From: Candidatus Dormiibacterota bacterium
GTDB taxonomy: Bacteria > Chloroflexota > Dormibacteria > DASZGP01
Assembly: GCA_049644325.1 (NCBI GenBank)
Contig: JBARRR010000061.1
Location: 19,455 to 83,454 of the forward strand
Length of the DNA: 64,000 nucleotides
Reading direction: 5' to 3'
The notes beneath the pieces were generated by a model, which was given only the letters and a program-made list of their open reading frames with translations, did not search any database and had not been told where the DNA came from. A program made the position numbers and the translations under genes. Positions 8,764 through 63,829 of this stretch are shown here, piece after piece. Every line of letters begins with the position of its first letter. Position 1 is the first letter of the stretch.

Positions 8764-9719
8764 CCATCTTCACCCGCAACTGGCGGTTCAAGGTCCTGGC
8801 CATCTTCGTGGCCCTTTCGACGTGGTCGGTGGTGGCCTACGCCAACAACCCGCCGGACTCGCAGGCGGTTAACGGCCTGGTCGTCGAGCACGGGCCGCCA
8901 CCAACTGGGCTGGTGCTCCTCAAGGAGCCGGACACCGTCAGCGTCACCATCTCCAGCCTCAGGGACCGGCTGTCGGCGTTCAAGCGCGAGAGCCTTCACA
9001 CCTCCATCGACCTGTCCGGGGCGCGCAGCGGGCACAACCTGCTGCGGGTCAAGATCGACAACTCCGACAAGAACATCAACGTGCTGGGCGCCGAGCCGGC
9101 GGTGCTTGACGTCGAGCTAGACCAACTGGTCAGCGTCGAGCGGAAGGTCGAGGTCCGGACCCGGGGCACGCCGGCATCCTGCTGCCAGGCCCACGATGCC
9201 GCCGCCAACCCGGCGACGGTCACTCTGCGCGGGCCGCAGAGCCAGCTTCAGAACGCTGTTGCCTTCGTGAGCGTGGACGTCGACGGCAAGCAGGCGCAGG
9301 TGGCCGAGACCGATACCGTCCAGGTGGAGACGGCGGACCGCAAGTCGTTGCCGCAGGTCTCAGTCAGCCCCTCGCAGGTGGCCGCAACCGTGCCCATCGA
9401 CCTGACCAAGGTGCAGCGAACGGTGCCGTTGCACACCGACTTCACCGGGGCGTTGCCGGCGGGCTACCGGATCACCCGGATCGACTACACGCCGGTGGTG
9501 GTCGAGATCGAGGGGGACCCCGGCTCCACCAGTGGGATCACCGAGCTCAGCACCGACCCGATCAGCCTCTCCGGCGTCACCGCGGATATCGTCCAGAACG
9601 TGAACCTGCGGCCGCCCAAGGGCGCCACGGTGCTGACCAAGGGGAACTTCAACATCCACGTCTTCATCGAGAAGGACACCCGGGTGCAGCCGACCCCGTT
9701 GCCCTCAAGCAGCCCCTGA
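8760..9719 (+). CDS. cdaR: CdaR/YbbR-like regulator of CdaA
   Basis: N-terminal TM anchor then YbbR-like repeats; directly downstream of cdaA with a 4-nt overlap. Confidence 0.7.
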   Translation: MTIFTRNWRFKVLAIFVALSTWSVVAYANNPPDSQAVNGLVVEHGPPPTGLVLLKEPDTVSVTISSLRDRLSAFKRESLHTSIDLSGARSGHNLLRVKIDNSDKNINVLGAEPAVLDVELDQLVSVERKVEVRTRGTPASCCQAHDAAANPATVTLRGPQSQLQNAVAFVSVDVDGKQAQVAETDTVQVETADRKSLPQVSVSPSQVAATVPIDLTKVQRTVPLHTDFTGALPAGYRITRIDYTPVVVEIEGDPGSTSGITELSTDPISLSGVTADIVQNVNLRPPKGATVLTKGNFNIHVFIEKDTRVQPTPLPSSSP

Positions 9720-9733
9720 TAGGCTGATCGCGA

Positions 9734-37441: not shown

Positions 37442-38146
37442 GTGACCGCAGGTGATTCTGCTGCCGTGCTGATCGTCGAGGACGACCGGCCGCTGCGGGA
37501 GACCATCAGCAGCGCGGTCAGCGATGCAGGCTATGCCGTCACCGCCGTAGCCGACGGCATCCAGGGCACCCAGGCGCTTCGCGCCGGCGGGTTCGACGTC
37601 GTGCTCCTCGACATCGGACTGCCCTTCGTTGACGGCTGGACGGTGCTGCGGACGCTCGAGGGTCAGCCGATCCCCTCGGTGATCGTGATCAGCGCCCGGG
37701 GAGACGAGCAGGACAAGGTCCGCGCCCTCGACATGGGCGCCGATGATTACCTGGCCAAGCCGTTCGGCGCCGACGAGCTCCTGGCACGGCTGCGCGCGGT
37801 CCTGCGGCGGTCGAAGCCTGAGCTGACTCCCAATCGCATGGCGCGAGAGGGCGACGTGGTCGTGGACCTGGGCAGTGGCGGGGTGCTGCGCGCCGGCAAG
37901 GAGGTCCGGCTCTCGCCAACGGAATACGTGCTGCTGGCGGAGCTCGCCCGGCACCAGCACGAGGTTCTCGACTACCGCACGCTGCTGCAGCGCGTCTGGG
38001 GACCTTCGTATGCCGACGAGCGCAACTACCTGCGCACCTTCGTCCAGCGACTGCGGGTCAAGCTCGAGGTCGATCCCGCCCAGCCCAGGGTGATCACGAC
38101 CGTTTCGGGGCGTGGCTACCGTTTCGGGGGACCGCCCGAGATCTAG
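37442..38146 (+). CDS. kdpE: KdpE-like OmpR-family response regulator
   Basis: Receiver (VLIVEDD...D...LLDIGLP) plus trans_reg_C; GTG 37442 chosen, and the ORF-track N-extension from 37172 is discounted. Confidence 0.75.
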   Translation: MTAGDSAAVLIVEDDRPLRETISSAVSDAGYAVTAVADGIQGTQALRAGGFDVVLLDIGLPFVDGWTVLRTLEGQPIPSVIVISARGDEQDKVRALDMGADDYLAKPFGADELLARLRAVLRRSKPELTPNRMAREGDVVVDLGSGGVLRAGKEVRLSPTEYVLLAELARHQHEVLDYRTLLQRVWGPSYADERNYLRTFVQRLRVKLEVDPAQPRVITTVSGRGYRFGGPPEI

Positions 38147-38219: not shown

Positions 38220-38627
38220 TTGGTATACGTGGACCGGCTTCACTTCATTCCAAGGCGGGACTTCGAGCAGCACCGAACCGTCCTGAGCGTCTTCTCGGGA
38301 GTCGAGACCGCGCGCGCCGCGCTGGCCGACGTCGTCGACACCCGCCGTATCCAGGTCCTGCGCGCCGACATTCTGCGGCCGGGGCGTCCCGACATCGGCG
38401 CGATCTCCGACTTGCTTGACCCAGACGAGCGCGACTGGCCTCGCTACCATGTTGCCCGCGGCCTCACCGTCCTGGTGCTGGACGTACCATCGGCGCACGC
38501 CTGGATCGCGACGCGGTTCCTTGTCGAGGTTGCCCGCAGTCCGCGCACGCTGATGCTGGCGCCGCGGCCCGGCCGCAGCGAGCTCGAGGTCCGCACCAAC
38601 TGGAAGGTGCCGTATGCAACCGCTTGA
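38220..38627 (+). CDS. hypothetical protein upstream of kdpF
   Basis: Coding-like GC3; no family. Confidence 0.4.
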   Translation: MVYVDRLHFIPRRDFEQHRTVLSVFSGVETARAALADVVDTRRIQVLRADILRPGRPDIGAISDLLDPDERDWPRYHVARGLTVLVLDVPSAHAWIATRFLVEVARSPRTLMLAPRPGRSELEVRTNWKVPYATA

Positions 38628-38703
38628 GTTAGCCGTTATTGGGCTGTTCTTCCTGTTCATCATCGTCAGCCTGCTCTACATAAAGGGGCTCGAGAAGATC
38701 TGA
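38614..38703 (+). CDS. 29-aa hydrophobic micro-protein (MQPLELAVIGLFFLFIIVSLLYIKGLEKI), KdpF-like
   Basis: ATG 38614; single TM; stop overlaps the kdpF start as ATGA; below the ORF-track cutoff. Confidence 0.4.
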   Translation: MQPLELAVIGLFFLFIIVSLLYIKGLEKI

Positions 38704-38801
38704 TGAGCTTGCCGCCAACGGACTTCCTGGTCACCGGGATCATCGCCCTTCTCCTGACGCTCTACCTGCTCATCGCGCTTTTGTTCCCGGAGCGGTTCTA
38801 G
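38703..38801 (+). CDS. kdpF: K+-transporting ATPase subunit F
   Basis: 32 aa MSLPPTDFLVTGIIALLLTLYLLIALLFPERF. Ends with the KdpF signature ALLxPExF. TAGTG overlap with the kdpA GTG start. Confidence 0.65.
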   Translation: MSLPPTDFLVTGIIALLLTLYLLIALLFPERF

Positions 38802-40528
38802 TGTTCCAGGTCGTCCTGGGGCTGGTCGTGACGTTCGTTCTGCTGGGCGTCGCCGCCTACTTCCTGGGCATCTACATGGAGAGGGTCTTCACCGGCAAGC
38901 CGACCTTCCTGCATTTCCTGCTGCACCCGGTTGAGCGCCTGCTGCTCTTCCTCATCGGCGTCAAAAAGGATGCCGAGCAGACCTGGGTCCAGTACCTGGT
39001 CTCGATGCTGATCGTGACCGCCGGCGGCATGGTGCTGACCTACACTGTGCTGCGGCTGCAGGACAAATTCCCCCTGAACCCGCAGGGGTTCGGCCCGGTA
39101 CCGCCGGACCTGGCCTTTAGCACAACCGTCAGTTTCGCCACCAACACTAACTGGCAGAACTACGGCGGCGAGACGACCATGAGTTACTTCAGCCAGATGG
39201 TGGCCCTGGTCTACCACCAGTTCCTGTCGGCGGCCACCGGTATTGCCCTGGCGATCGCCCTGGTGAGGGCCCTCGCCCGCCGCAGCACCAGCACCATCGG
39301 TAACTTCTACGTCGACGGCGTTCGCTGCATCCTCTACGTCCTGTTGCCGATCTCGTTTGTCGGAGCGATCTTCCTGGTGTCCCAGGGCTCGATCCAGAAC
39401 TTCAGTCCCTACACCGCGGTGACCACCCTCGAGGGCGCCACTCAGACAATCGCCCAGGGCCCGGTCGCCTCGATGGAGACCATCAAGGATCTCGGCACCA
39501 ACGGCGGCGGCTTCTTCAATGCCAACGCCGCCCACCCCTTCGAGGATCCCAACGCCATCACCGCCTATTTCCTGTTTGGCCTGATGCTGGTTATCGCGTT
39601 CGGTCTAACCGTTACCTTCGGCCGCATGGTGGGTAACGTAAAGCAGGGCATCGCGGTGGCCGCGGCGATGGCCATCATCCTCATTGGTGGTGCGAGCTTC
39701 GCCGCCTACCAGGAGCAGCATGGCAACCCCGCGCTGACCGCCGTGGGCGTTACCCAGGCCCGGACCGATGGGCAGGCGGGCGGGAACATGGAGGGCAAGC
39801 GCACCGACCTCGGCCCGGTCTTCTCCTCGTTCTACGCAGCGGGCACGACCGGCACCAGCACTGGCTCGGTGGTGGCCTCCCACGACAGCCTCACCCCCCT
39901 TGGCGGAATGGTTCCTCTGACGCTGATCAAGCTCGGCGAGATCACCCCCGGCGGGGTCGGCTCCGGCCTCTACGGGATGTTGACCTTCGCCATCCTTGCT
40001 GTATTCATAGCCGGTCTGATGGTAGGGCGCACTCCCGAATACCTGGGCAAGAAGATCGAGGCTCGCGACGTCAAGTACGCGTCGCTGGCGATCCTGATCC
40101 TGCCCGCCTCGATCCTCGGCTTCGCTGCGATTTCAGTTGTGGTGCCTGGGGGCCTCGCCGGCATCACCAACCCGGGGGCCCACGGACTAACCCAGGTGCT
40201 CTACGCCTTCGCATCCAATACCGGCAATAACGGCAGTGCCTTCGCCGGCCTCCTGGGCAACACCGTCTACTACAACACCACCATGGCCGCGGCCGAGTGG
40301 CTGGGCCGCTTCATCTTCGTTATCCCGGTGCTTGCCCTGGCAGGGAACCTGGCCCGCAAGAAGATCGTCCCCGCCAGCGCCGGCACCTTTCCGACTGACA
40401 CGCCCCTCTTCACCGGCTTGCTCATCGGTGTGATCTTGATCGTCGGGGCTCTCACTTTCTTCCCGGCGCTGGCGCTCGGTCCGATTCTCGAGCACCTGCA
40501 GCTCTACGCCGGCCAGCTGGCCCACTAG
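38801..40528 (+). CDS. kdpA: K+-transporting ATPase subunit A
   Basis: 575 aa polytopic protein; canonical KdpA. Confidence 0.9.
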
Positions 40529-40545
40529 GAGGGACGTCGCACACA

Positions 40546-42606
40546 ATGAGCTCGTCCCTAAGCACCAACCCCCCCGCCCGCCGGCGACGCAAGAGCAGCC
40601 TGACGGACAGGTCGATCATCGTCCCGGCGCTCTGGGCGTCGGTCAAGAAGCTGGACCCCCGCTGGCAGCTGCGCAACCCGGTCATGTTCGTGGTCGAGGT
40701 CGGCGCCGTTATCTCCACGTATGCCTGGATCACCAGCTTCAGCAACCACGGAGACACCCTGTTCGTCGGCCAGATAGCAATCTGGCTGTGGTTCACGGTC
40801 CTGTTCGCGAACTTCGCCGAAGCAATGGCCGAAGGCCGGGGCAAGGCCCAGGCGGCGGCGTTGCGCAAAACCCGCACCGACACCATCGCCCGCAAGCTGG
40901 TCGATGGCGTCGAGCAGAAGGTTTCGGCCCCCGAGCTGCGCAAGGGTGACATCGTCGTAGCTGAGACGGGCGATGTGATCCCCAGCGACGGCACCGTCAT
41001 CGAGGGAATTGCATCGGTCGACGAGTCGGCCATTACGGGGGAGTCGGCCCCGGTCATCCGCGAAGCCGGCGGCGATCGCAGCTCCGTCACTGGGGGCACC
41101 CGGGTGCTGTCCGATCGCATCGTCATCGAGATCACCCAAAATCCAGGTGAGACCTTTCTCGACCGCATGATCACGCTGGTTGAGAGCGCCGCCCGCCAGA
41201 AGACGCCGAACGAGATCGCGCTCAACATCCTGCTAGCGGTACTGACGATCATCTTCATGTTCGCGGTTGTGACGCTGCAGCCGTTCGCGCTCTACAGCGG
41301 CACATCGGTGGCCATCGTCGTACTGATCTCTTTGCTGGTCTGCCTCATCCCCACGACCATTGGCGGGCTGCTCTCTGCCATTGGCATCGCCGGTATTGAT
41401 CGCCTTCTGCAGAAGAACGTCCTGGCAATGTCGGGCCGCGCGGTCGAAGCCGCCGGCGATGTGGACACCCTGCTGCTGGACAAGACCGGCACGATCACTC
41501 TTGGCAACCGCCAGGCTACTGAGTTCATCCCCGCGCCCGGGGTTGAGTCGAGCCGCCTGGTCAGCAGCGCGGAGCTGGCCAGCCTCGCCGACGAAACGCC
41601 CGAGGGCCGCTCCATCGTGTCCTTGGCCCAGCGGCTTGGCTCCAAGGAGTCCGAGCATGGCCACGACGTCGTCTTCATCGCCTTCAGCGCCAGCACTCGG
41701 ATGAGTGGGATCGACCGCGGCGATTCCAGCATCCGGAAGGGCGCCGCCGACGCGGTGGCCAGCTGGTGCGACCCGGAGGGTCACAACGGTCTGCCGAAGG
41801 AGGTCAAGGAGCAGGTTGACGCTATCGCCCGCACGGGCGGGACGCCGCTGGTGGTCGCCGAAGACCAGCGTGTGCTCGGCACCATCCATCTCAAGGACAT
41901 CGTCAAGCCCGACATCGCCGATCGTTTCGCCGAGATCCGCCGAATGGGGCTGCGCACCGTCATGATCACCGGCGACAACCCCCTGACCGCCGCGGCCATC
42001 GCCAAGGAGGCCGGCGTAGACGACTTCCTCGCCGAGGCCACCCCGGAGAACAAGCTGGAGCTGATCCGCGAGGAGCAGGCCCAGGGCAAGTTGGTGGCGA
42101 TGACCGGCGACGGCACCAACGATGCCCCTGCATTGGCTCAGGCTGACGTCGGAGTCGCCATGAACAGCGGCACCCAGGCCGCCAAGGAGGCGGGCAACCT
42201 GGTCGACCTCGACAGCGACCCCACCAAGTTGATCGAGATCGTGGAAACGGGCAAGCAGATGCTCATCACCCGTGGCGCCCTGACGACGTTCAGCATCGCC
42301 AACGACGTGGCCAAGTACTTTGCCATAATTCCCGCGATCTTTGCTGGCGCCTTCCCCGTACTGAGCGCCCTCAACGTGATGGGCCTTACCAACCCCAACA
42401 GCGCGGTACTTTCGGCGGTGATCTTCAACGCCCTGATCATCGTTGCCTTGATCCCGCTCGCTTTGCGCGGTGTCAAGTTCCGGCCCATCGGCGCCGCCCC
42501 GCTGTTGCGCCGCAACCTGCTGATCTACGGCGTGGGCGGGATCGTCATTCCCTTCATCGGCATCAAGGCGATCGACATCATCGTCAGCGCCGTTCACCTG
42601 GCTTAG
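40546..42606 (+). CDS. kdpB: K+-transporting ATPase subunit B (P-type ATPase)
   Basis: DKTGT phosphorylation motif, TGDN and [10 protein letters not shown]. Confidence 0.95.
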
Positions 42607-42614
42607 GAGTCGAG

Positions 42615-43220
42615 ATGGTCAGAGCAATCCCCCGCGACCTCATCACCACCCTCCGGTTCACGATTGTCTTCGTAGTCATCTGCTGCTTCGCGTATACCTT
42701 CGCGGTGACCGGTGTGGCCCAGCTGATATTCCCCAGCCAGGCCAATGGCAGCATCGTCAGCCACGGTGGCCAGCAGGTCGGCTCCAAGCTCATTGGGCAG
42801 AACTTCACCGACCCCAAGTACTTCCACGGGCGGCAGTCGGCCACCGTCGACGCCAACGCCAGCCCGCTGCCGTACAACGCCCAGGCGTCCGGCGGCAGCA
42901 ACCTTGCGCCGACCAACCAGGCGCTTATCGACCGCGTTAAGGCCTCCGTCGACGACATCAAGAAGAACGAGCCCGGGCTTAAGGGCGATGTTCCCGTCGA
43001 CCTGGTCACCGCCGATTTCAGTGGCTTCGACCCCTACATCACGCCGGCCTCAGCCCAACTGCAGGTGGCGCGCATCGCCGCCAACCGCCACCTCGATCCC
43101 GCCAAGGTGCAGAAGGTCGTGGATGCCCACACCGAGGGTCCCCAGCTGGGCGTCCTCGGTGAGAAGCACGTCAACGTTCTCGCCCTCAACCTGGCGCTGG
43201 ACGATGGCGAAGCCAACTAA
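42615..43220 (+). CDS. kdpC: K+-transporting ATPase subunit C
   Basis: 201 aa; N-terminal TM; KdpC family. Confidence 0.85.
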   Translation: MVRAIPRDLITTLRFTIVFVVICCFAYTFAVTGVAQLIFPSQANGSIVSHGGQQVGSKLIGQNFTDPKYFHGRQSATVDANASPLPYNAQASGGSNLAPTNQALIDRVKASVDDIKKNEPGLKGDVPVDLVTADFSGFDPYITPASAQLQVARIAANRHLDPAKVQKVVDAHTEGPQLGVLGEKHVNVLALNLALDDGEAN

Positions 43221-44411: not shown

Positions 44412-44756
44412 ATGGAGATTCAGACCCGGTCGATAGTCGGGGTTTTCATGAGCCACGACGAAGTCGAGCACGCCCGGCGCAGGCTACGCGCGACCCCCAT
44501 CCTGCTGCTTCGCTCCGAGGTGGTGGAGTCCGTGAGTATCGGCAAGCATGTCCTCGGGACGCTGATGCCGCAACTGGAGGCGGACTACATGCTCAAGCAG
44601 CTGGAAAAAGGGCGTACCCTGTTCGCAATCCAGGTTCCCGCGGAAGACGGCATGTCGGCCTTCAGGTTCATGACCGACGTGGCCGGCAGCCGCGAGACGA
44701 CCGCCCTGTGGGGCCGCAGCGAACGGGTGGTGCGGATCGTCACCAGCCCCGTCTGA
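44412..44756 (+). CDS. hypothetical protein (114 aa)
   Basis: ORF between the STPK and the KdpD-N gene. Confidence 0.4.
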   Translation: MEIQTRSIVGVFMSHDEVEHARRRLRATPILLLRSEVVESVSIGKHVLGTLMPQLEADYMLKQLEKGRTLFAIQVPAEDGMSAFRFMTDVAGSRETTALWGRSERVVRIVTSPV

Positions 44757-44824: not shown

Positions 44825-47017
44825 ATGGCTCAGACACGCGCGGAATCGGGCCTGGTCGGGCAGGAAGCATCCTCAACCGGCGATCGCCGCGGTTACCTCA
44901 AGGTCTACATGGGAGCCGCGCCCGGGGGCGGCAAGACCTACGCAATGCTCCGTGAGGGCCATCGCCTTCGGCAGCAGGGGCACGACGTGGTCATCGGGCT
45001 CGTAGAGACTTATAACCGGCCCCGCACGGTCGAGGCAATCGGCGACCTGGAGACGGTGCCGCGCAAGGGATTCGAGTACAAGGGCACCATGCTCGAGGAT
45101 ATGGACCTCGATGCCGTCCTGGCCCGGCGGCCCGAGGTAGCCCTGGTCGACGAGCTGGCTCACACCAACACTCCTGGCATGAAAAACGAGAAGCGCTGGC
45201 AGGACGTGGAGGAACTCCGTGGCGCCGGCATCGACGTGATCACCACTGTCAACGTCCAGCACGTCGAGAGTGTCAAGGATGTGGTGGAGCGCATCACCGG
45301 TATCGTGGTGCGGGAGACGGTCCCTGACGCTGTCCTCGACCGGGCCGATGAGATCCAGTTCATCGACATCTCACCCGAGGCGCTGCGCAAACGTATGCAG
45401 CACGGCAACATATACGGCAAGGACCGCGTGGAAACCGCGCTGTCCAACTTCTTCCGGCCGGGCAACCTGGCGGCACTGCGTGAGATCGGGCTTCGCCTTG
45501 TGGCGGAGAGCATGGCCCGCAGCAGTGGCGTCCACGAGGCGCCGGAGGACGTGATGGTGGCGATCTCGGGGGCGCCCAGCTCTGAGCTATTGATGCGCCG
45601 CGGGGTGCGCCTCGCCCGCAGGCGGGGAGGCGTTTGCATGGTGGTCCTGGTGGCGCGTCCGGACCAGCGCATCGACGTGGCCCAGTATTCTGCGGTGGCG
45701 GACCGGCTGGGGTGCTCGTTCGCGGTCATCCGCGGTGGTGACGTCGCAGCGGAGATCGCCCGCGCTGCCCACGAGGCCAACATGTCCCACCTGGTCCTGG
45801 GCGAGTCGCTGGGCACCGAGGGACTGGGCCGCTGGAAGAAGACGCTGGTCGACCGCGTGATCGACGCTCTCCCCGACGTCGACATCCACGTTGTCGCCCG
45901 CATGGAGGCGGCGCCCGAGGACGACCATCAGCGTCCTGACCCGGACCGACTGATCAAGCGCCAGCGAACGGGACCACGCGCCAACGCCCACATGCGTGTG
46001 TATATGGGGTACGCCGCCGGGTGTGGCACCACCACGACAATGCTCAACGAGGCCCGTCGCCGGCAGTCGCGCGGTACCGACGTGGTGGTGGCCGTCGCCT
46101 CCGTCCAGTCAAGGACGGCCTTGAGCGGGCTGGAGGTGATCGGCGGCCATGACGCGGTCGGACCTACGATGTTGGATGTCGACGCGGCGCTGGCGCGCAA
46201 CCCTGAGGTGGTCGCCGTCGACGACCTCGCCGGGGTGGACACCGATGGCTCGAGGCGCTACCAGTCGGCGACGCGCCTGGTGGCGGCCGGCATAACCGTG
46301 CTGGGGACCCTTCACCTGACCGACCTGGATAGCGTGCGGTCGCGTTTCGCAGACGTGCTTGGCCACCGCAGCCAGGGCCCGCCGGTTAATGATGAGGTGC
46401 TTCGGTTTGCCGAGGAGCTGGAGCTTGTTGACGTCACCCCCGCGACACTTTTGGAACGCCTCAAGAATGGCGAGATCTTCCCGCCGGCGGAGGCGGCTCG
46501 GGCAATGCAGGCCGAATTCCGGCCTCAAGCGCTAGCGGCGCTCCGAGAGATGGCGTTCCGGGTCATTGCCGAGCACACCGACCGGCAGCTGCTGGCCTAC
46601 ATGCGCGAGCGCAACGTGGCCATCCCCTGGGAGGCGCGGGTCCGCATGGTGGCGGCGATCCCGCCGCGGCCGGGGATGACAGATCGCATCCGGCGTGCGG
46701 CCCGCATGGCAGAGGCGCTCGAGGCGCAGTTCACCGTCGTGACGGTGCGCACCCGGCGGCTGTCCGATGAGCACCAGCAGGCGCTCGGAGAATACGCCCA
46801 CCTGGTCCACCAACTGAGCGGTGAGTACGTCACCCTCTACGGTTCCAACGTCGCCGAGGTCCTGGCCAACTACGTGCGCGAGACCCTCAGCACCGAGGTG
46901 GTGGTCGGCCACCGGCTGCAGCGCTGGACCCCATGGGACACCACCAGCAACCTGATCCGCCTTCTCAGTGACGTCAACATCCACCTCCTGCGCGCCGAGT
47001 CAGGCGCCAGGTCTTAG
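44825..47017 (+). CDS. tandem-duplicated KdpD sensor N-terminal domain + USP protein (no kinase domains)
   Basis: Two repeats of KdpD_N (Walker-like GAAPGGGKTY / GYAAGCGTTT) each followed by a USP-like domain; 730 aa. Confidence 0.8.
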   Translation: MAQTRAESGLVGQEASSTGDRRGYLKVYMGAAPGGGKTYAMLREGHRLRQQGHDVVIGLVETYNRPRTVEAIGDLETVPRKGFEYKGTMLEDMDLDAVLARRPEVALVDELAHTNTPGMKNEKRWQDVEELRGAGIDVITTVNVQHVESVKDVVERITGIVVRETVPDAVLDRADEIQFIDISPEALRKRMQHGNIYGKDRVETALSNFFRPGNLAALREIGLRLVAESMARSSGVHEAPEDVMVAISGAPSSELLMRRGVRLARRRGGVCMVVLVARPDQRIDVAQYSAVADRLGCSFAVIRGGDVAAEIARAAHEANMSHLVLGESLGTEGLGRWKKTLVDRVIDALPDVDIHVVARMEAAPEDDHQRPDPDRLIKRQRTGPRANAHMRVYMGYAAGCGTTTTMLNEARRRQSRGTDVVVAVASVQSRTALSGLEVIGGHDAVGPTMLDVDAALARNPEVVAVDDLAGVDTDGSRRYQSATRLVAAGITVLGTLHLTDLDSVRSRFADVLGHRSQGPPVNDEVLRFAEELELVDVTPATLLERLKNGEIFPPAEAARAMQAEFRPQALAALREMAFRVIAEHTDRQLLAYMRERNVAIPWEARVRMVAAIPPRPGMTDRIRRAARMAEALEAQFTVVTVRTRRLSDEHQQALGEYAHLVHQLSGEYVTLYGSNVAEVLANYVRETLSTEVVVGHRLQRWTPWDTTSNLIRLLSDVNIHLLRAESGARS

Positions 47018-48177
47018 ACCTTCGGCAGCGTAAAGCGGAAACTGGCACCGGGCCCGGGCCGGTCTTCCAGCTCGATGCTGCCGGCGTGCGCCTCGACCAG
47101 GCCGCGGACGATGGCGAGGCCGAGCCCCGAGCTCTGGCCGGCGTCGAGGTCGCTCTCCCTGGGGGTGCGGACGAAGCGGTCGAAGAGGTGGGCACGGTAG
47201 GCCTCAGGGACTCCAGGACCAGCGTCGACCACCCGAACCACGACCATGCCCTCCTGCTCCTCGGCGTCGGCGAGGACCTCGATGGAGGCGGCCGGCGGGC
47301 TGTAGCGGTCGGCGTTGCCCAGCAGGTTGTCGAGGACCTGGCTCAGCCGGGTCCAGTCGGCCAGGACCATGACGTCGTGGTCCGACTCACCCCATTCCAC
47401 GGTGCGCTCGGGGGCGTGAGACTTGAGGCGCTCGGCGGCGGCGACGACGGCGTCGGCCAGGCGGGTGGGCTCGAGGTCGAGCTGCAGGGCGTTGCTCTCG
47501 ATGCGGGCCAGGTCGAGGGTGTCGGTGACCAGCTTGTTGAGGCGGCGTGACTCGGCGGCGATTGTCTCCAGCCGTTCACGCGCGGCGGGGGAGAGCTCGT
47601 CCTTCTGGAGCAGGTCGGTGCTCGCGGTCAGGATCGTGGAAAGGGGGGTGCGCAGGTCATGGGAGACGTTGGCCATGATCTCGCGCTGGGCTTGCTCGCT
47701 CTCCTGCAGCGCCCGGACCTGCTGCTCAGTGCGCGCCAGCCGCAGCTCGAACTGGGCGGCTTCGGCCTGCTCGCGGTTGAGGCGAAGGAGCTCGTCGTTG
47801 GCGTCGCCGAGCTGGCGGGTGAGCGCCTCTGCCCGGAGCAGCGCTCGGCGCCTCACGGTCGCCAGCGCGCCCACCACCCCGGCGGTGGTGAAGAAGACCA
47901 CCAGGATGAGAAGGTCCTGGTCACTGGAGATGGTGAAGGTGTGAAGGGGCTGGACGAAGTAGTAGTCGACCAGTAGGAAGCTGACCGCCGCGGCCAGGAG
48001 CGAGGGCCAGAGACCGCGCAGCACCGCGATCACCGCGACCACGCCCATGTAGAGGAAGACGTAGGTGAGGCCCTGGGTGCCGACGGTGACCAGGATGGCG
48101 GTCAGGGCCACCGGCGCCGCCACCGCCAGGGCCACGACGCTGGTGTTGATCAGGCGATCGCGCGTGCCGGGCGACAT
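47014..48177 (-). CDS. sensor histidine kinase, KdpD C-terminal-half-like (4-TM DUF4118-like domain, HisKA, HATPase_c)
   Basis: Four TM helices, coiled coil, H-box VSHDLRTPL and an ATP lid; convergent with the KdpD-N gene with a 4-nt overlap. Confidence 0.8.
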   Translation of the reverse strand: MSPGTRDRLINTSVVALAVAAPVALTAILVTVGTQGLTYVFLYMGVVAVIAVLRGLWPSLLAAAVSFLLVDYYFVQPLHTFTISSDQDLLILVVFFTTAGVVGALATVRRRALLRAEALTRQLGDANDELLRLNREQAEAAQFELRLARTEQQVRALQESEQAQREIMANVSHDLRTPLSTILTASTDLLQKDELSPAARERLETIAAESRRLNKLVTDTLDLARIESNALQLDLEPTRLADAVVAAAERLKSHAPERTVEWGESDHDVMVLADWTRLSQVLDNLLGNADRYSPPAASIEVLADAEEQEGMVVVRVVDAGPGVPEAYRAHLFDRFVRTPRESDLDAGQSSGLGLAIVRGLVEAHAGSIELEDRPGPGASFRFTLPKV

Positions 48178-48203: not shown

Positions 48204-48647
48204 TCAGGCTATCGCCAGGCTGCGCTCCGACTCTGCCGAGGTCACCTCACTGGCCAACTCGATCCAGGCCACCGCGGCTGTGCTGCCGATGGTGGCTCCC
48301 ATCACCGCCGCTTGCTTCAGGCCCTCGCCGGTGAGTCCAGCCCAGGCGAGGGCGGCGACGTCGACCGCATCGACCGCCGTGTTCAGCCGGTAGCAAAGCA
48401 GCCGCTGCTCGGGTCCCTGGTCGCGGGCCATCAAGGTCCAGGCGCCCAGCACGATATTGCGGATGCCGAACATGCGCGCGACCAGCCGCAGCGAGGCGTT
48501 GTCCTGGTTGTCGGGAACGCCAAAGAGCCGCCTGGCGAGCGCGGGGATCATGAGCGTGCTGCCCACCACCAGCCTGAGGGTCCCGATCCGAGTGGCGCGC
48601 TCGCGCTCGCTGTGGGTGCGGAGCAGGACCGGGGAGAGGTTCGCCAT
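48204..48647 (-). CDS. hypothetical membrane protein
   Basis: 147 aa ORF upstream of the kinase on the same strand. Confidence 0.4.
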   Translation of the reverse strand: MANLSPVLLRTHSERERATRIGTLRLVVGSTLMIPALARRLFGVPDNQDNASLRLVARMFGIRNIVLGAWTLMARDQGPEQRLLCYRLNTAVDAVDVAALAWAGLTGEGLKQAAVMGATIGSTAAVAWIELASEVTSAESERSLAIA

Positions 48648-58257: not shown

Positions 58258-59001
58258 TTACGCCTTCTCGACCACCAGGCTGAATCGCGATTTGAACCGC
58301 TGCATGGCCAGCAGTACGGGCGCCCCCAATCCCAGGACCATGGCCGCGTTGCCGGCGGCCCGAAACGTATCCCAGACCAGGGACGTGGTGACGTAGTACC
58401 GGCCGAAGCGGCCCAGGGCTACCAGCGGCGCCAGTCCCGGCGTCCAGCCGATGTCGGGCGCGCTCCGGAAGAAGCTCCAATCCCAGACGTCGAGGATGAC
58501 GCCGTAGGCGTACCCCAGGATGACGCCGACCGCCGCCAGGGACAGGAGCCGCGCCCGCGGCGAGAACCCCGCCGTGGCCCGCCCGGCCACCCCCGCCAGC
58601 ATCCCGGTCCAGCCGACGCCAAACATCTCGTACGGCAGCCAGGGGCCGACTCCGCCGGTGACCAGCGCCGAGGTCAGCAGCGCCAGGGAGCCGGCCAAAA
58701 AGCCGAACGCGGGCCCAAAGACGTACCCCGCGCACAGCACCAGGAAGAAGATCGGGCTGAAGCCGGCCAGCCCGGTGACCAGGGCCAGCCGCAGGGCGGC
58801 ATCGAGGGCGGCGAACACCGCCAGCAGGGCCAGCCGTCGGTTGTCCAGCTCGTGGGTGCCGATGCCGATGAGGAGGATGGCGAGAACCACGCCGAGACCC
58901 AGGGCCAGCGCCGGCGACTCCGGGGGCAGGCCGAGGCCGAGGAAGGGCCAGGCGAAGATGGCGATGCCGGCCAGCGAGATCATCGGCAGTCTCATAGACA
59001 C
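58258..59001 (-). CDS. ECF transporter substrate-specific (S) component
   Basis: Six-TM, 247 aa protein encoded right after the ECF A/T genes. Confidence 0.6.
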   Translation of the reverse strand: MSMRLPMISLAGIAIFAWPFLGLGLPPESPALALGLGVVLAILLIGIGTHELDNRRLALLAVFAALDAALRLALVTGLAGFSPIFFLVLCAGYVFGPAFGFLAGSLALLTSALVTGGVGPWLPYEMFGVGWTGMLAGVAGRATAGFSPRARLLSLAAVGVILGYAYGVILDVWDWSFFRSAPDIGWTPGLAPLVALGRFGRYYVTTSLVWDTFRAAGNAAMVLGLGAPVLLAMQRFKSRFSLVVEKA

Positions 59002-60611
59002 GCCATCACCCCCTCCACGCTGACCGGACCGCCCGGGTAGAGGCGGGCGATGTCGGTCGCGCCCGGTTGCCCTGAGGCCAGGGCTTGCTCAGGTGGTCCG
59101 CCATCGACGGCACGACCGCGGTCAAGGCGGATGACGCGGTCCGCCAGGTCGGCGGCCAGCTCGGAATCGTGGGTCGCCAGGACAACCGAAGACCCCGCGG
59201 TTCGCAGCTGCCGGACGAGGGCAGCCAGGGCTTCCCGGGCGCTGCCGTCCATGCCCCGGGTGGGCTCGTCGAGCAACGCCAGCTTCGGGCTGCCGGCGAG
59301 GATGGCGGCGATGGCGGCGCGCTGGCGTTCACCACCGCTGAGGTCGCGAGGATAGCGGCTGGCAAGGGCGCTGAGGCCGAGCGCGCCCAGGATGGCGTCG
59401 CCCCGGGCCCGGGCTTCAGCCCCACGGAAGCCCGCCCGCAAGAGGGTGAAATCGAGCTCGGCACGGACCGTCGGGTGGTGGAGGAGGGCGGTGGGGTCCT
59501 GGGGCAGGTACGAGACCCGGCCCCGCTCGCCCAGTTCGCGGTCGACCGATCCCGCCGCTGGGGGGTGCAGACCGGCCAGCGCTCGAAGCAGGGTGGTCTT
59601 GCCGCTGCCGTTGTCACCCATCAGGACCACGACCTCACCGGCATGCCCGGCCAGGGACGCGCCTTCAAGCACCACCTGGTCGTCATGCCGGACGGATAGG
59701 TCCTGGACCTCCCATACCACGGTGCCCCCTGCCGTCGGTGTGCGCCTCGGTGCTCGCGCCAGCACGGGAGCTACAGACATTGCCTCCGCGATGGTCAGGG
59801 GTGGCGGTCGCCAGCCCAGCCGGCGTCCCAGCTCGACCACCTGGGGCGGATGGGTCAGCTGTGGTGCCAGTGAGCGGGGCGGCCCGATGGCCCGAACCGC
59901 CCCGGAGTCCATCAGGACCATGTGGTCGGCCGCCGGGAGTAGGCGGCTGAGACGGTGCTCGGTCACCGCCAGGCTGGCGCCCCCTGCAGCCAGCTCGAGG
60001 ACGGCGTTGAGGAAGGCCGCCGCCCCAGATGGGTCGAGCTGGCTGGTGGGCTCGTCCAGGGCCAGGATCGCCGGCCGCATCGCCAGCGCCGATGCCAGCG
60101 CGACCCGCTGTCGCTCGCCGCCGCTCAGGGTTGCGATGGCGCGCCGGCGCAGCTGGGTTATCCCAAGCGCCGCCAGCACCTCATCAACGCGCGCGCCGAT
60201 CTCCGCTCTCGGGAGCCCCAGGTTCTCCGGCCCGAAGGCGACCTCACGCTCAACCGTTCCGTAGACGAACTGGCTCTCCGGGTCCTGGAAGACAAACCCC
60301 ACGTTGCGGGCCAGGTGACGGGTCCGGGCGGTGAGCACGGAACTGCCGCAGACCACGGCGTCGCCCCGTATGCGCCCACCGTGGAAGTGAGGGATGAGCC
60401 CGTTGAGGACCCGCAACAGCGACGACTTGCCGCTGCCGCTGTCGCCGGCGACGATGGTCAGCCCTGGCTCGAGATCGACGTTGATCCCCGCCAGGGCTGG
60501 GACCTGGCCGTCGGCGTAGTGGTAGGTCAGGTCCTGGAAGCTGGCGATTGCCGCGGGCCGCGGCGACGACGCCAGGACCTCGGGAACGGGACGGGGCAGC
60601 GTCTCAGTCAT
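58992..60611 (-). CDS. ecfA: ECF transporter fused tandem ATPase (EcfA-EcfA')
   Basis: Two ABC cassettes (GDSGSGKSS and GDNGSGKTT Walker A; two LSGGERQR signatures). Confidence 0.85.
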   Translation of the reverse strand: MTETLPRPVPEVLASSPRPAAIASFQDLTYHYADGQVPALAGINVDLEPGLTIVAGDSGSGKSSLLRVLNGLIPHFHGGRIRGDAVVCGSSVLTARTRHLARNVGFVFQDPESQFVYGTVEREVAFGPENLGLPRAEIGARVDEVLAALGITQLRRRAIATLSGGERQRVALASALAMRPAILALDEPTSQLDPSGAAAFLNAVLELAAGGASLAVTEHRLSRLLPAADHMVLMDSGAVRAIGPPRSLAPQLTHPPQVVELGRRLGWRPPPLTIAEAMSVAPVLARAPRRTPTAGGTVVWEVQDLSVRHDDQVVLEGASLAGHAGEVVVLMGDNGSGKTTLLRALAGLHPPAAGSVDRELGERGRVSYLPQDPTALLHHPTVRAELDFTLLRAGFRGAEARARGDAILGALGLSALASRYPRDLSGGERQRAAIAAILAGSPKLALLDEPTRGMDGSAREALAALVRQLRTAGSSVVLATHDSELAADLADRVIRLDRGRAVDGGPPEQALASGQPGATDIARLYPGGPVSVEGVMACL

Positions 60612-61431
60612 GGCGTGGCACCAGCATCGGCGTGAGCAGCAGAAGGACGCCGGCCAGGGCCAGCGGGTTGACCAGGGGGACGGTGGGTACGGGGTATGGG
60701 TACCAGTCGGCCACCAGGCCGGTTACCCGGGCGGCGATGAAAACAAGCGTCGCGGCGGCTGCGGTCAGAACCACCATCAGGTCGCCCGTGCGCCACGGCT
60801 CCGGCATCCAGCGGGTGCGGTGGCCGGAGCCGAAGGCGCGCGCCTCCATCGCCTCCGCCAGCTGGATCGAGCTCTCCATCGACGTCAGCACCAGCGGCAC
60901 CAGCACCTCGGCGTACGACCGCGGACCTCGCGGCCGCCAGCCGCGCACGCTCTGGGCATCGCGGATGGCGCCGTAGCTGCGGCCGATACCCGGCACCATG
61001 TTCAGCGCCGCCGCGATGGTTGCGCCGGCGCGCTCCAGGGAGCGGGGCAGGGCGTCGACCACCTGGTGTGGGTCGACAACCAGTGATAGCGGCGCCGCCG
61101 CCAGGGCGGCGGCCGAGAGGCCGATGCCGCTGGCCAGGCCGAAGACCGCCGACTCCAGGGTCACCGGCCCGGCGAGCCCGGGGACCTGGTGGGGGATGAC
61201 GAAGAGCACATGGGCCCCGGCGTGGCTCAGGAGCATGCTCACGCCAACCGCCACGACCGTGGCGAAAAGGAGGATGCGGAGCAGCCCTCCGAGCTGTCGC
61301 CCCGGCCGCTTACGAGCGACCATGAAGTTGATCGCCAGCAGGATCACCAGCGCCCGGTAAACGGGGTGGTTGGCCACCAGGACGATGGTCAACGCCGCCG
61401 CCGACCAGGCCGCCACCGCCCGTGGGTTCAA
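60604..61431 (-). CDS. ecfT: ECF transporter transmembrane (T) component (CbiQ family)
   Basis: Polytopic; coupling-helix motif AMEARAFG. Confidence 0.75.
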   Translation of the reverse strand: MNPRAVAAWSAAALTIVLVANHPVYRALVILLAINFMVARKRPGRQLGGLLRILLFATVVAVGVSMLLSHAGAHVLFVIPHQVPGLAGPVTLESAVFGLASGIGLSAAALAAAPLSLVVDPHQVVDALPRSLERAGATIAAALNMVPGIGRSYGAIRDAQSVRGWRPRGPRSYAEVLVPLVLTSMESSIQLAEAMEARAFGSGHRTRWMPEPWRTGDLMVVLTAAAATLVFIAARVTGLVADWYPYPVPTVPLVNPLALAGVLLLLTPMLVPRHD

Positions 61432-62189
61432 CGCCGGAGCCTCGGCAGCAACAGCTGGATCACCAATAGCGCGACCAGGCCGATCGCCGTGGCGGCCGCC
61501 GCCCCGATCCCGACCAGGTTCGAGGTGTTGGTTGCCAGGGCCGGAAGCGGGCCGGCGCTGGGTGCTGGTGAAGCGCCCCCGCCGAGCGCCACCTCACCGG
61601 GGTTGGGGCTGGTGGAGCTCGGGTCGGGTGAGCTCTCGGGACTGGGCTGGCCCGCGGTCGCCGGTCCCGCAGCTGACCGCGCGCTCGCGCCGGCCCCCGG
61701 GTTCGCTCCGCTCGAGCCTCCTCCAGCGCTGCCACCGCTGTCCGCCGCCGCGCTGGCTGGCGGTGGCGCTGCCGGTGGGCAGTCAGCCGGCGGGGGAGGT
61801 GGGCCGCCGGCCTGGGGGACGAAGGAGAAGCCCTCGGCCTCGTGGTCGTGGAAGGCGATCCCGTCAATCCCCTTGTGGGCGAAAGCCCACGAGCCCCCGC
61901 ACGGCGAGATCCATATCGACCAGTAGCTGGATTGCTTGAGGCAATCCGGGGGGTAGCTGCTGGGCTCGTTGTCGACCTGGCAGACGGTGTCGCCGTAGTT
62001 TGGGTCGGAGGAGAAGCCGTGTTCGATCCCGGACGCGGTCAGCAGCTCCTTGCCGCCGATGGTGTCGCCCGAGAAGCCGACGCACGCCGTGAAGGCCCGG
62101 CCGTCGCCGTGGCGGACCATCACGGTGGCGTGGTGCGCCGCCGACTGGTTGACGCAGGCCGGTGGGGCGGCGGCGGCTGGAGGCGACAT
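61428..62189 (-). CDS. secreted protein with Gly/Pro/Ser linker and C-terminal sorting-like signal (DUF4430-like beta domain suspected)
   Basis: ATGA overlap with ecfT; C-terminus ...LPALATNTSN + TM + PRLRR. N-terminus/start uncertain. Confidence 0.5.
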   Translation of the reverse strand: MSPPAAAAPPACVNQSAAHHATVMVRHGDGRAFTACVGFSGDTIGGKELLTASGIEHGFSSDPNYGDTVCQVDNEPSSYPPDCLKQSSYWSIWISPCGGSWAFAHKGIDGIAFHDHEAEGFSFVPQAGGPPPPPADCPPAAPPPASAAADSGGSAGGGSSGANPGAGASARSAAGPATAGQPSPESSPDPSSTSPNPGEVALGGGASPAPSAGPLPALATNTSNLVGIGAAAATAIGLVALLVIQLLLPRLRR

Positions 62190-62263
62190 CCCTCCATAAA
62201 GGAGGAGCGCGGTGGCGCCCAGGCCGGCGCAGAGGCCGGCCCGGACAACGGCGCGAGGCGGTC

Positions 62264-63502
62264 TCAGCCCTGGCGTCGGGGCACACCCATGGCGAGGGCG
62301 GACGCCAGCACCAGGAGGACTGCGATCGTCAGCGCAACGACCCCTCGCGGGTCAGCCTGCGGGCCCGGGTGGCCGGCGGCCGGCAGCGCTGGCGCCGGTG
62401 AGGCCGCCTCCAGCGCACCAGAAGCGACCGGGCAGCCTGCCGCGGGTACCACCACGCCGGCCGTGGGAGCGTTGATCGGCAGCGCCTTGCCGACCAGCGC
62501 GGGCGGCACCTGGCTGGTGGTGAAGGTGTCCGGCAAGGGGGTGGAGAACCCGCCGCCGGCGTCCTCCATCGAGAGCAGGTTGCCCAGCGGCGAGTTGCCT
62601 GAGACCTGCCAATTCGAGACCGCCTGGCCGGTGGCGGCCAGCGCTGCGAGTACCAGCGCGTCCGAATCCGCGTCGCTGGCGGTGCCGAAGGCCGAAGGCG
62701 CCTGGAACGGGAACCCGCCGTCGGTGTTCTGCTGTGTGTGGAGCCAGGCCAGGGCGGCGGTGTTGCGGCTGTTGTCGCCGGCGGCAGTAAGGGCCTGGAG
62801 GGCCACCGCGGTTGAGTTGGTGTCGCCCTGGGCGGCGTTGCTGACGGCGGCGCTGCTCCAACCCTTGAAGGTGAAGCCGGTGGCCTGGGTGTCGGGCGTC
62901 ACGCCCTGGTTCTCGAGCCCCTTGAGCCAGGTGACCGCCGCCGCCGGGGCCGTGCCCCCGGTTGCCTTGACGGCGAGGATCGCCAGAGCCTGGGCGAAGG
63001 TGCTGCCATCGCCGTAGGAGCCGGTCGCGACGCCGGTGGAATGGTAGAAGCCGGCGGGCGTGGCTGACTGGTCGCTGGTCAGCTTGGTCAGGAGGTCCTG
63101 GCCTCCGAAGCCGTGGTAGTCGAACTTCCCGGCCGGGGTGTTACCAGCCGCCAGGGCGAGGAGCAGCTTGGCGGTCTTGCCCGCGTCGGCCGCGGCGCCA
63201 GGGGCCTGGGCGGCCAGGTAGTCGTAGAGGCCCTGGCCACCGGTCTTATGGACGGTATTGGGGTCAATCCCGATGGCTGCGGCGCCCACGGCAAAGTCCA
63301 TGCTGGCACCGGGATTGCCGAAGCCTCCGGCGCTGCTCATGTCAAGTGAGCCATCCGTCTTCTGGTTGGCGGCCAGGTACTGGACGGCGCGGGTGGCGGG
63401 GTCGCAGGCAGCGCTGGCGACAAGCGGTGGGGTGAGTGCCAGGCCGCCGAGGGCGGTGGTGACGGCCAGTGTCGCGCTGGCCATGCGGAGGGTCGTCTTC
63501 AT
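62264..63502 (-). CDS. secreted alpha/alpha-toroid protein (prenyltransferase/squalene-oxidase repeats) with C-terminal sorting-like signal
   Basis: Signal peptide ...LVASA/AC; repeats with Q-x-x-D-G-[GS]-[FL] (AANQKTDGSL, HTQQNTDGGFPFQ, MEDAGGGFS). C-terminus ...ALPAAGHPG + TM + PRRQG. Confidence 0.65.
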   Translation of the reverse strand: MKTTLRMASATLAVTTALGGLALTPPLVASAACDPATRAVQYLAANQKTDGSLDMSSAGGFGNPGASMDFAVGAAAIGIDPNTVHKTGGQGLYDYLAAQAPGAAADAGKTAKLLLALAAGNTPAGKFDYHGFGGQDLLTKLTSDQSATPAGFYHSTGVATGSYGDGSTFAQALAILAVKATGGTAPAAAVTWLKGLENQGVTPDTQATGFTFKGWSSAAVSNAAQGDTNSTAVALQALTAAGDNSRNTAALAWLHTQQNTDGGFPFQAPSAFGTASDADSDALVLAALAATGQAVSNWQVSGNSPLGNLLSMEDAGGGFSTPLPDTFTTSQVPPALVGKALPINAPTAGVVVPAAGCPVASGALEAASPAPALPAAGHPGPQADPRGVVALTIAVLLVLASALAMGVPRRQG

Positions 63503-63596
63503 TTTTGTCTCCCAGCGGCGGGCTCACCCCGCGCCGAAAGACCGCTGCCGCTGAAGGCCGTCGTTCCCGTTTTCGCGCGGGGGTTCACGTCTACCG

Positions 63597-63752
63597 CCCC
63601 GTCAGGTCTCCTGGCTCACGGATCCCGACGACCGGTCGCCTTCCCAGGACCTGGGTCCCAGTGGCTGGATGACCGGCCGTTCCCCGTTCACAGTTGCGCG
63701 ACAGCGCCGGATTCGCACCGGCTTCCCTTGGCAAAACGGCTACCCAATGATA
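63597..63752 (-). promoter_or_regulatory. cobalamin (B12) riboswitch in the 5' leader of the 62264..63502 operon
   Basis: Minus-strand RNA reads ...AAGGGAAGCCGGUGCGAAUCCGGCGCUGUCGCGCAACUGUGAACGGGGAACGGCCGGUCAUCCAGCCACUGGGACCCAGGUCCUGGGAAGGCG... This matches the RF00174 core (GGGAA..GGUG..AAUCC..GCUG..CGCAACUGU) and the B12 box GCCACUG. Confidence 0.85.
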
Positions 63753-63829
63753 GTCCCGCCAGGAGTGCGTAGGTCCGGGCGAAGCTTGGTCCGCAGTACG
63801 ATTTCGACGACCACACGGAGGATTGGCGA

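Follow-up and report, generated by a model that had tools for sequence, protein, structure and literature searches.

In the 64,000-nucleotide stretch of DNA analysed here (the window), the genes of Kdp, the emergency high-affinity K+ pump of bacteria, are followed by a gene (44825-47017, plus strand) for a soluble 730-residue protein made of two KdpD_N+USP modules, and a gene running towards it encodes a separate membrane histidine kinase of 387 residues. We consider it likely that this is a split KdpD in which module 1 is an active serine kinase that acts on the pump subunit KdpB and module 2 is a non-catalytic regulatory or scaffold partner, transcription being controlled by the histidine kinase together with a response regulator. 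What looks new here is the second module, which has no Walker A lysine yet is under purifying selection, forms a clade of its own and is sometimes a separate gene, while the doubled proteins of Bacillota and Gloeobacter keep the GKT motif twice. The locus represents a known system in a lineage-specific variant, set apart by a pseudokinase second module, a kinase without a GAF domain and a new phylum, and is not a new kind of system. The source organism is a Dormibacterota metagenome-assembled genome (MAG), that is, a soil bacterium of an uncultured phylum; the G+C content of the window is about 68%, and the top protein match of the tandem protein, at 93% identity, comes from a 'Candidatus Dormibacteraeota bacterium' MAG.

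How Kdp is shut off through serine phosphorylation of KdpB was explained only in 2024, when KdpD_N was described as an atypical serine kinase that phosphorylates KdpB at the TGES serine, Ser162, by means of its Walker motifs A and B and thereby inhibits the pump, the isolated domain being sufficient (Silberberg et al., 2024; PMC11018627). In E. coli KdpD, KdpB phosphorylation is lost when Walker A carries three substitutions together (G36A/K37A/T38C) and also when Walker B carries D109A or E110A alone, and the short KdpD of Deinococcus geothermalis also phosphorylates KdpB, with an activity that is stimulated by 1 mM cyclic di-adenosine monophosphate (c-di-AMP). The accompanying survey of 5495 species listed 140 with a split 'KdpD domain, Usp domain + TM, GAF, DHpCA domain' arrangement (TM, transmembrane) and 86 with a 'KdpD domain, Usp domain x2' protein, namely 80 Bacillota (Alicyclobacillus acidocaldarius among them), 2 Gloeobacter and 4 Nitrospirota; a diadenylate cyclase is present in all 86 of these and KdpE is absent from 78. 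Alicyclobacillus, Anabaena and Deinococcus radiodurans keep their serine-kinase chain in the kdp operon and have expression under a separate two-component system. The x2 class was tabulated and drawn in that work without discussion, and Dormibacterota lie outside its phylum table (Silberberg et al., 2024). Our literature search on Dormibacterota KdpD, or on functional work with x2 proteins, returned nothing past this 2024 catalogue.

The literature therefore already contains the split and the duplication as well as the c-di-AMP idea and the operon logic, and the original prediction for this locus, which had been made from the DNA letters and had treated the split and the duplication as unusual, described what are in fact two catalogued classes. 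Its observation is confirmed, while its interpretation is partly supported and has been superseded by the 2024 work. In particular, its label 'sensor-only' no longer fits, as KdpD_N is now known to be a kinase, module 1 keeps all of the catalytic motifs and the KdpB of the window keeps TGES.

A doubled KdpD_N+USP protein

Against the Pfam family KdpD (PF02702) the 730-residue protein scores 465 bits over two stretches, and module 2 alone (residues 370-730) scores 158.7 bits and covers profile positions 3-209 of 210. The D. geothermalis short KdpD, a KdpD_N+USP protein of 365 residues, can be aligned end to end with each half (243 bits over residues 14-360; 122 bits over residues 370-725), and module 1 matches the sequence of PDB entry 2R8R with an E value of 1e-60. 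Two consecutive KdpD_N+USP modules thus stand in one chain that has neither TM nor DHpCA regions, which is the composition that defines the x2 class. The NCBIfam model KdpD_non_kinase (NF038185, 'KdpD-like non-kinase potassium sensor') represents a single module of 373 residues; the tandem protein reaches 491 bits against it, summed over two stretches, and stays below the cut-off of 550, so that it is a doubled relative of NF038185 and not a strict member. Homologues are labelled 'sensor histidine kinase KdpD' or 'hypothetical protein' in current databases, and neither label is correct.

The domain search that had been proposed as a check upholds KdpD_N in both modules through PF02702. With Pfam Usp (PF00582), module 1 obtains 28.8 bits (cut-off 24), no single stretch passing alone, and module 2 has no match; we nevertheless regard the second half of module 2 as a probable USP domain because of its full-length homology to module 1, a predicted (beta-alpha)4-beta unit and a structural match to a KdpD USP domain. 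These structural indications come from an AlphaFold2 model of the whole protein, built on 51 homologues, which has a mean predicted local distance difference test score of 79.5 and displays the same secondary-structure pattern in both halves, including the (beta-alpha)4-beta USP-like unit. In a Foldseek search, the full-length model gave a TM-score of 0.94 with 2R8R, the crystal structure of the N-terminal region of KdpD, and one of 0.80 with 7JI4, the c-di-AMP-bound USP domain of S. aureus KdpD, the latter match not being assigned to one module. The predicted TM-score (pTM) of the model is 0.43; it therefore carries no reliable inter-module geometry, and its placement of the modules was rejected for use.

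The two modules share 30% protein identity, and direct DNA repeats between the halves are limited to chance-level matches of at most 38 nt at 74% identity, from which it follows that the duplication is old and not an assembly artefact, a possibility that the original prediction had itself raised. A search of 5.8 billion clustered proteins with the tandem protein as query also yielded, among the matches listed, at least 120 clusters of 700-762 residues, with a query coverage of 92-100% and identities of 56-93%.

A second module without the Walker A lysine

Module 1 has a Walker A motif GAAPGGGKT (G-x5-GKT), a Walker B motif VDELAH and the arginine-containing segment LRKRMQHGNIY, in which the arginine of the LRKRM segment aligns with KdpD R190. 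In 121 aligned metagenomic homologues G-x5-GKT, DELAH and LRKRMxHGNIY are invariant or nearly so, and among the loci from GTDB the K-T pair of Walker A is found in 70 of 74 and the DE pair of Walker B in 72 of 74. The original claim of two complete KdpD_N+USP modules is borne out, as described above; the modules are not equivalent, because module 2 is without the Walker A lysine. In the window its Walker A motif reads GYAAGCGTTT, with threonine in place of lysine, and its Walker B motif VDDLAG, with aspartate in place of glutamate and the LAH part of the DELAH motif gone. Across the 121 homologues module 2 has G-x-G-T-T-T, or A-T, where module 1 has G-K-T. The corresponding pair in the GTDB loci is TT in 46, AT in 15 and some other non-lysine pair in 4, with 14 unparsed, so that lysine occurs at this place in none of the 65 parsed loci; nor does it occur in the eight commonest variants of the 121 metagenomic homologues. 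The glycine, glycine and threonine of the module 2 P-loop and its Walker B aspartate are invariant in 51 sequences. A regular-expression count of 'DD' for the module 2 Walker B in 72 GTDB loci was not relied on, since the aligned counts give a majority of DELNG and the expression probably caught a neighbouring DD.

The ratio of nonsynonymous to synonymous divergence (dN/dS) from the 93% relative is 0.07 for module 1 and 0.12 for module 2: both modules are under purifying selection, and module 2 is not decaying. Synonymous divergence (dS) from one locus of that relative (L006) is itself uneven, at about 0.55-0.73 in module 1, 0.16 in the USP region of module 2 and 0.195 in the convergent kinase, and its drop over 45932-48177 could reflect either a recombination boundary or a constraint on synonymous sites where the convergent transcripts overlap.

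The relationships among modules were examined with a neighbour-joining tree, which is distance-based and has no support values. In this tree the C-terminal modules of window-type proteins and four stand-alone module 2 proteins, all full-length (P0152, P0158, P0159 and P0173), form one clade apart from all other KdpD_N+USP modules. Judging from the tree and the motifs, the Dormibacterota tandem looks like an independent and older duplication whose second copy turned pseudokinase, although a distance-based tree without support values indicates this independence and does not prove it. Common descent with the x2 proteins of Bacillota and Gloeobacter is not borne out by the tree, in which these are separate duplications elsewhere, and here too the tree is indicative only.

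The pump as the main genomic partner

A module 2 profile found 146 relatives among the GTDB species representatives, and gene order was read from the best 80, almost all of them labelled Dormibacterota. The MAG names (for example Candidatus Solibacter, Angelobacter, Nitrosotalea and Micrarchaeaceae archaeon) are probably wrong at L007, L010, L016, L022, L029, L036 and L078, loci whose kdp synteny is typical of Dormibacterota. On long contigs the order is kdpF-A-B-C, then the tandem gene, then a convergent DUF4118-HisKA-HATPase kinase. In essentially all 80 loci module 2 is immediately preceded by module 1, the two forming one open reading frame (ORF) in 59 and adjacent separate genes in 21. 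Upstream, kdpC lies within 400 bp of the tandem gene in 61 of the 64 loci that reach far enough; of the 68 loci whose sequence is long enough, 25 have the convergent kinase no more than 300 bp downstream, 6 have it at a greater distance and 37 have none within 6 kb. Because of this difference in adjacency, we conclude that the main genomic partner of the tandem gene is the pump, not the kinase.

In the window itself, the plus strand carries a KdpE-like response regulator, an ORF of 135 codons, kdpF, kdpA, kdpB, kdpC, a Hanks-type kinase gene, an ORF of 114 codons and the tandem gene, in that order, followed by the convergent histidine kinase gene. The KdpB of the window is 74-93% identical to KdpB of related loci. 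The Hanks-type kinase gene and the 114-codon ORF are both confined, among 85 loci, to the window and its 93%-identical relative (L004-L006 for the kinase); a second type of kinase within the operon is curious because KdpB is regulated by serine phosphorylation. The tandem and histidine kinase genes have the 4-nt overlap originally described, which lies at the stop codons (TAG at 47015-47017 for the former; TAA, which is TTA on the plus strand, at 47014-47016 for the latter), and since they converge they have no shared transcript. Neither a terminator nor a promoter was detected at the junction (terminator-like count 5 against 4.0 in shuffles; no sigma-70-like sites), a result that is uninformative for a high-GC, non-model phylum.

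The histidine kinase corresponds to the membrane half of KdpD in the way that had been predicted. Pfam gives it DUF4118 (residues 16-113), HisKA (163-228) and HATPase_c (274-386) only; four hydrophobic segments can be seen by eye in DUF4118, the H-box reads SHDLRTP, and a helical linker of 50 residues joins TM4 to DHp where Pfam detects no GAF domain. The GAF-less architecture is the same in L001-L005. Its best NCBIfam match is KdpD (NF007793 / PRK10490) at 163.5 bits, far under the cut-off of 1123 bits, with PnpS next at 159 bits, and we assign it to the Kdp system because of DUF4118 and the conserved synteny. The candidate KdpE likewise has KdpE (NF007820 / PRK10529) as its best NCBIfam match, at 177 bits where the cut-off is 325, with MtrA at 173.8 bits; it lies directly 5' of kdpF in L001, L002 and L004 but not in L003.

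Tandem genes also occur away from the pump. Some Dormibacterota genomes have two tandem loci (L014 and L045, on contig CAWJVN010000001.1; L015 and L041; L054 and L085; L036 and L078), and the second locus has no adjoining kdpC or true kdpB in L041, L045 and L085; of L036 and L078, the latter is linked to kdp and the former ends at a contig edge. In a 1161-residue protein from a Streptosporangiaceae MAG (P0135) a window-type tandem with a lysine-less module 2 follows an N-terminal ABC_tran ATPase and AAA_assoc_C, and the ORFs of L083 and L085, of about 1240-1280 residues, have such a tandem, module 2 again without lysine, after an N-terminal extension. No kdpB or kdpC lies near these loci.

Comparison with known KdpD proteins

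The tandem protein resembles the x2 proteins, such as those of A. acidocaldarius (Q6KBY6) and Gloeobacter kilaueensis (U5QMZ5), in being a soluble chain (of about 750 residues in that class) with two KdpD_N+USP modules and no kinase core; the hosts have a diadenylate cyclase, and in A. acidocaldarius the x2 gene lies downstream of the pump genes with a separate two-component system. It is unlike them in several respects. The x2 representatives have G-x5-GKT in both modules, and mostly DELAH as well (Sporolactobacillus P0127, G. kilaueensis P0128, P0132, P0134, P0139 and F8IKB2; the second module of an Alicyclobacillus x2 protein begins GAAPGVGKTYRML), whereas module 2 here is without the lysine, and in most x2 representatives it is the C-terminal module that is more canonical. 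The N- and C-terminal modules of Sporolactobacillus are sisters, whereas module 2 of Dormibacterota is in its own clade. Most x2 species have no KdpE, whereas the window locus has a response regulator and a histidine kinase, and the class has been reported from Bacillota, Cyanobacteriota and Nitrospirota only.

With the split KdpD class, which includes many Acidobacteriota and Chloroflexota as well as Anabaena and D. radiodurans, the locus shares the separation of serine- and histidine-kinase chains and the position of the serine-kinase chain in the kdp operon; that class, however, has one KdpD_N+USP module and a histidine kinase with GAF, in contrast to the doubled module and GAF-less kinase of the window. 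A TM+DHpCA class without GAF is not in the class list of Silberberg et al. (2024). The D. geothermalis short KdpD (Q1J2K3), alignable though it is with each window module, has a single module. E. coli KdpD has the same KdpD_N, USP, DUF4118 TM, DHp and CA families and the same pump target, but is one polypeptide with a GAF domain and a single N-terminal module.

c-di-AMP as a candidate ligand

The original prediction pointed out a cdaA-cdaR pair in the window, and the pair is indeed there, about 35 kb from the tandem gene and directly before glmS. The order over 7807-11569 (plus strand) is cdaA, cdaR, glmS; glmM is missing from between the last two, and just upstream lies a gene for an ornithine/aspartate carbamoyltransferase. 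A functional link to kdp by proximity was rejected in view of this distance and of the location next to glmS. A c-di-AMP (ydaO) riboswitch was not found upstream of kdp, the Rfam hits in the window at gathering threshold being confined to a cobalamin riboswitch and a tRNA.

USP domains of KdpD that bind c-di-AMP in the manner of S. aureus have the consensus (A/G/C)-x-S-x-S-x2-N ... (Y/F) (PMC8214093). When module 1 is compared with 7JI4 through the family profile, the corresponding segment is A-I-S-G-A-P-S-S, in which A242 and S244 are kept, S246 is alanine and N249 is serine, while Y271 is leucine, so that two of five positions agree; most relatives have serine at the third position. For module 2 (AAIPPRPG) about one of the five agrees, as read by eye from an alignment anchored on the D. 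geothermalis protein. The USP loop of that protein, VAVAAEGTA, fits the consensus even worse; the window loop is VAISGAPSS. Because the c-di-AMP-responsive D. geothermalis KdpD also fails it, the consensus is not decisive, and because neither loop fits, ligand specificity is not transferable by sequence. With cdaA-cdaR belonging to a distant housekeeping cluster, binding of c-di-AMP by the tandem protein is put forward here as a hypothesis, in which c-di-AMP would be a reasonable candidate ligand.

Proposed mechanism and alternatives

Domain identities, motif states, conservation and synteny are observed, and from these we infer every activity, any ligand and the role of module 2. The tandem gene, downstream of kdpFABC on the same strand, is probably co-transcribed with the pump. 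Module 1 would most likely be an active atypical serine kinase that phosphorylates the TGES serine of KdpB at replete potassium and so turns the pump off. Module 2 would be an old, diverged copy from which the Walker A lysine has disappeared, as has the catalytic glutamate in this lineage, and that has been kept by selection, most likely as a non-catalytic regulator or scaffold of module 1 in a kinase-pseudokinase tandem. The signal might be a nucleotide at the USP domain or at the degenerate P-loop, c-di-AMP being a candidate only, and the convergent GAF-less histidine kinase and the KdpE-like regulator upstream of kdpF would separately set transcription of the operon. A more specific version, which is conceivable but which we put forward tentatively, is that this ancient lysine-less paralogue, whether fused or encoded by an adjacent gene, is a dedicated allosteric regulator, sensing a nucleotide or serving as an adaptor with KdpB or the GAF-less kinase as its partner, that gates module 1 and replaces the K+-sensing TM/GAF input of canonical KdpD.

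Several points count against this outline. As judged by Pfam, support for the USP domain is weak in module 1 and absent in module 2. The structural model, with its low pTM, offers no support for an intramolecular contact between the modules. The Firmicute c-di-AMP motif is kept at just two of five positions in module 1. The response regulator and the histidine kinase both score below the NCBIfam cut-offs for KdpE and KdpD, and the link of the kinase to kdp is lineage-dependent, given the 37 of 68 loci with no adjacent kinase. Finally, KdpB or the tandem protein could also be a substrate of the Hanks-type kinase encoded in the operon.

It would be rather unlikely, in our estimation, for the tandem protein to be a pure sensor without enzymatic output that works as a detached KdpD input, binding c-di-AMP, ATP or K+ and controlling the convergent histidine kinase in trans. 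Such an arrangement would agree with the 140 KdpE-bearing species in which KdpD_N/Usp and histidine kinase chains are split, with the convergent and adjacent position of the kinase in 25 of 68 loci, and with the idea that a kinase without GAF may need an external input; reportedly, in the work of Heermann and Jung, the N-terminal domain of E. coli KdpD can act in trans on truncated KdpD. Yet a sensor has no need of the serine-kinase catalytic residues, all of which module 1 retains, the c-di-AMP motif is only partly there, and 78 of the 86 x2 species do without KdpE. Because of this last point, and because the tandem gene follows the pump genes (61 of 64) more faithfully than it does the kinase, trans-regulation is the weaker reading; it and a pump-kinase role are not mutually exclusive and may coexist.

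Quite improbable is the idea that the protein is a dual kinase in which both modules are enzymes, the variant P-loop of module 2 (Gly-x-Gly-Thr-Thr) serving for phosphorylation of a different target or for binding and turning over a different nucleotide. The invariance of the P-loop glycines and threonine and of the Walker B aspartate is in its favour, as are the purifying selection on module 2 and the competent look of both modules in the x2 proteins of Bacillota and Gloeobacter; it has to contend with the effects of the Walker A triple mutant, D109A and E110A in E. coli (Silberberg et al., 2024), given that module 2 is without lysine in every parsed relative and that in this lineage the glutamate and the LAH part are gone as well. 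That the duplication is an artefact of assembly or gene calling, or module 2 the remnant of a decaying pseudogene, is scarcely credible, having already been refuted by the data. We found no support for it, the nearest thing being the 21 of 80 loci in which the modules lie in different frames and could resemble frameshifts. The halves are only 30% identical with no DNA repeat, the same architecture recurs in more than 120 protein clusters of the same length and in 59 of 80 GTDB loci from independent assemblies, including contigs of more than 1 Mb, and a module with a dN/dS of 0.12, whose stand-alone versions are full-length and cluster with the fused ones, does not have the appearance of a remnant.

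Other features of the window

The coordinates of the genes discussed are collected in Table 1. A tiny hydrophobic ORF next to kdpF may encode an extra KdpF-like peptide; an ORF of 30 residues stands at the equivalent position in L002. The cobalamin riboswitch lies at 63584-63755 on the minus strand (100 bits), upstream of a minus-strand cluster (58258-63502) that includes a 412-residue protein, CbiQ-like and ABC ATPase components and an ECF substrate-specific component.

Table 1. Genes and modules of the kdp locus and the cdaA-cdaR pair, with positions in the window
Feature	Position	Strand	Remarks
cdaA	7807-8763	+	
cdaR (YbbR)	8760-9719	+	
OmpR-type response regulator, candidate KdpE	37442-38146	+	Pfam Response_reg and Trans_reg_C; start GTG at 37442, in agreement with a 234-residue gene call in L004
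135-residue ORF between the KdpE-like regulator and kdpF	38220-38627	+	no family match; 132-residue counterpart gene in L004
Tiny hydrophobic ORF, 29 residues, MQPLELAVIGLFFLFIIVSLLYIKGLEKI	38614-38703	+	immediately 5' of kdpF
kdpF, 32 residues	38703-38801	+	small hydrophobic ORF immediately 5' of kdpA; the 32-residue L004 equivalent matches PF09604 Potass_KdpF
kdpA	38801-40528	+	Pfam KdpA 744 bits
kdpB, P-type ATPase subunit	40546-42606	+	TGES motif (...AITGESAPV...) bearing the phospho-acceptor serine
kdpC	42615-43220	+	Pfam KdpC 237.7 bits
Hanks-type Ser/Thr protein kinase with C-terminal hydrophobic segment	43318-44316	+	Pfam Pkinase 161.9 bits; between kdpC and the tandem gene
114-residue ORF	44412-44756	+	no Pfam or NCBIfam match; G+C at third codon positions 0.85; 79% conserved in L004-L006
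Tandem gene, module 1 (residues 1-369), KdpD_N + USP	44825-45931	+	
Tandem gene, module 2 (residues 370-730), KdpD_N-like with degenerate P-loop + USP-like, predicted pseudokinase	45932-47017	+	
Membrane histidine kinase, 387 residues, KdpD C-terminal half without GAF	47014-48177	-	
DUF4267-like small membrane protein	48204-48647	-	Pfam DUF4267 22.7 bits, below cut-off; directly upstream of the kinase; kept only in the close relative

Implications

On the reading favoured here, in which module 1 is the active kinase and module 2 its non-catalytic partner, an uncultured soil phylum would keep the kinase that shuts off KdpB joined to a conserved but catalytically crippled copy of itself, and would leave transcription to a stripped-down histidine kinase. 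How a KdpD serine kinase is gated in proteins that have no K+-sensing TM/GAF domains is a question that was raised in the 2024 study and answered there only for one single-module Deinococcus protein (Silberberg et al., 2024). If module 2 does turn out to be a regulator, the Dormibacterota tandem would be a natural system in which to understand this kind of gating.

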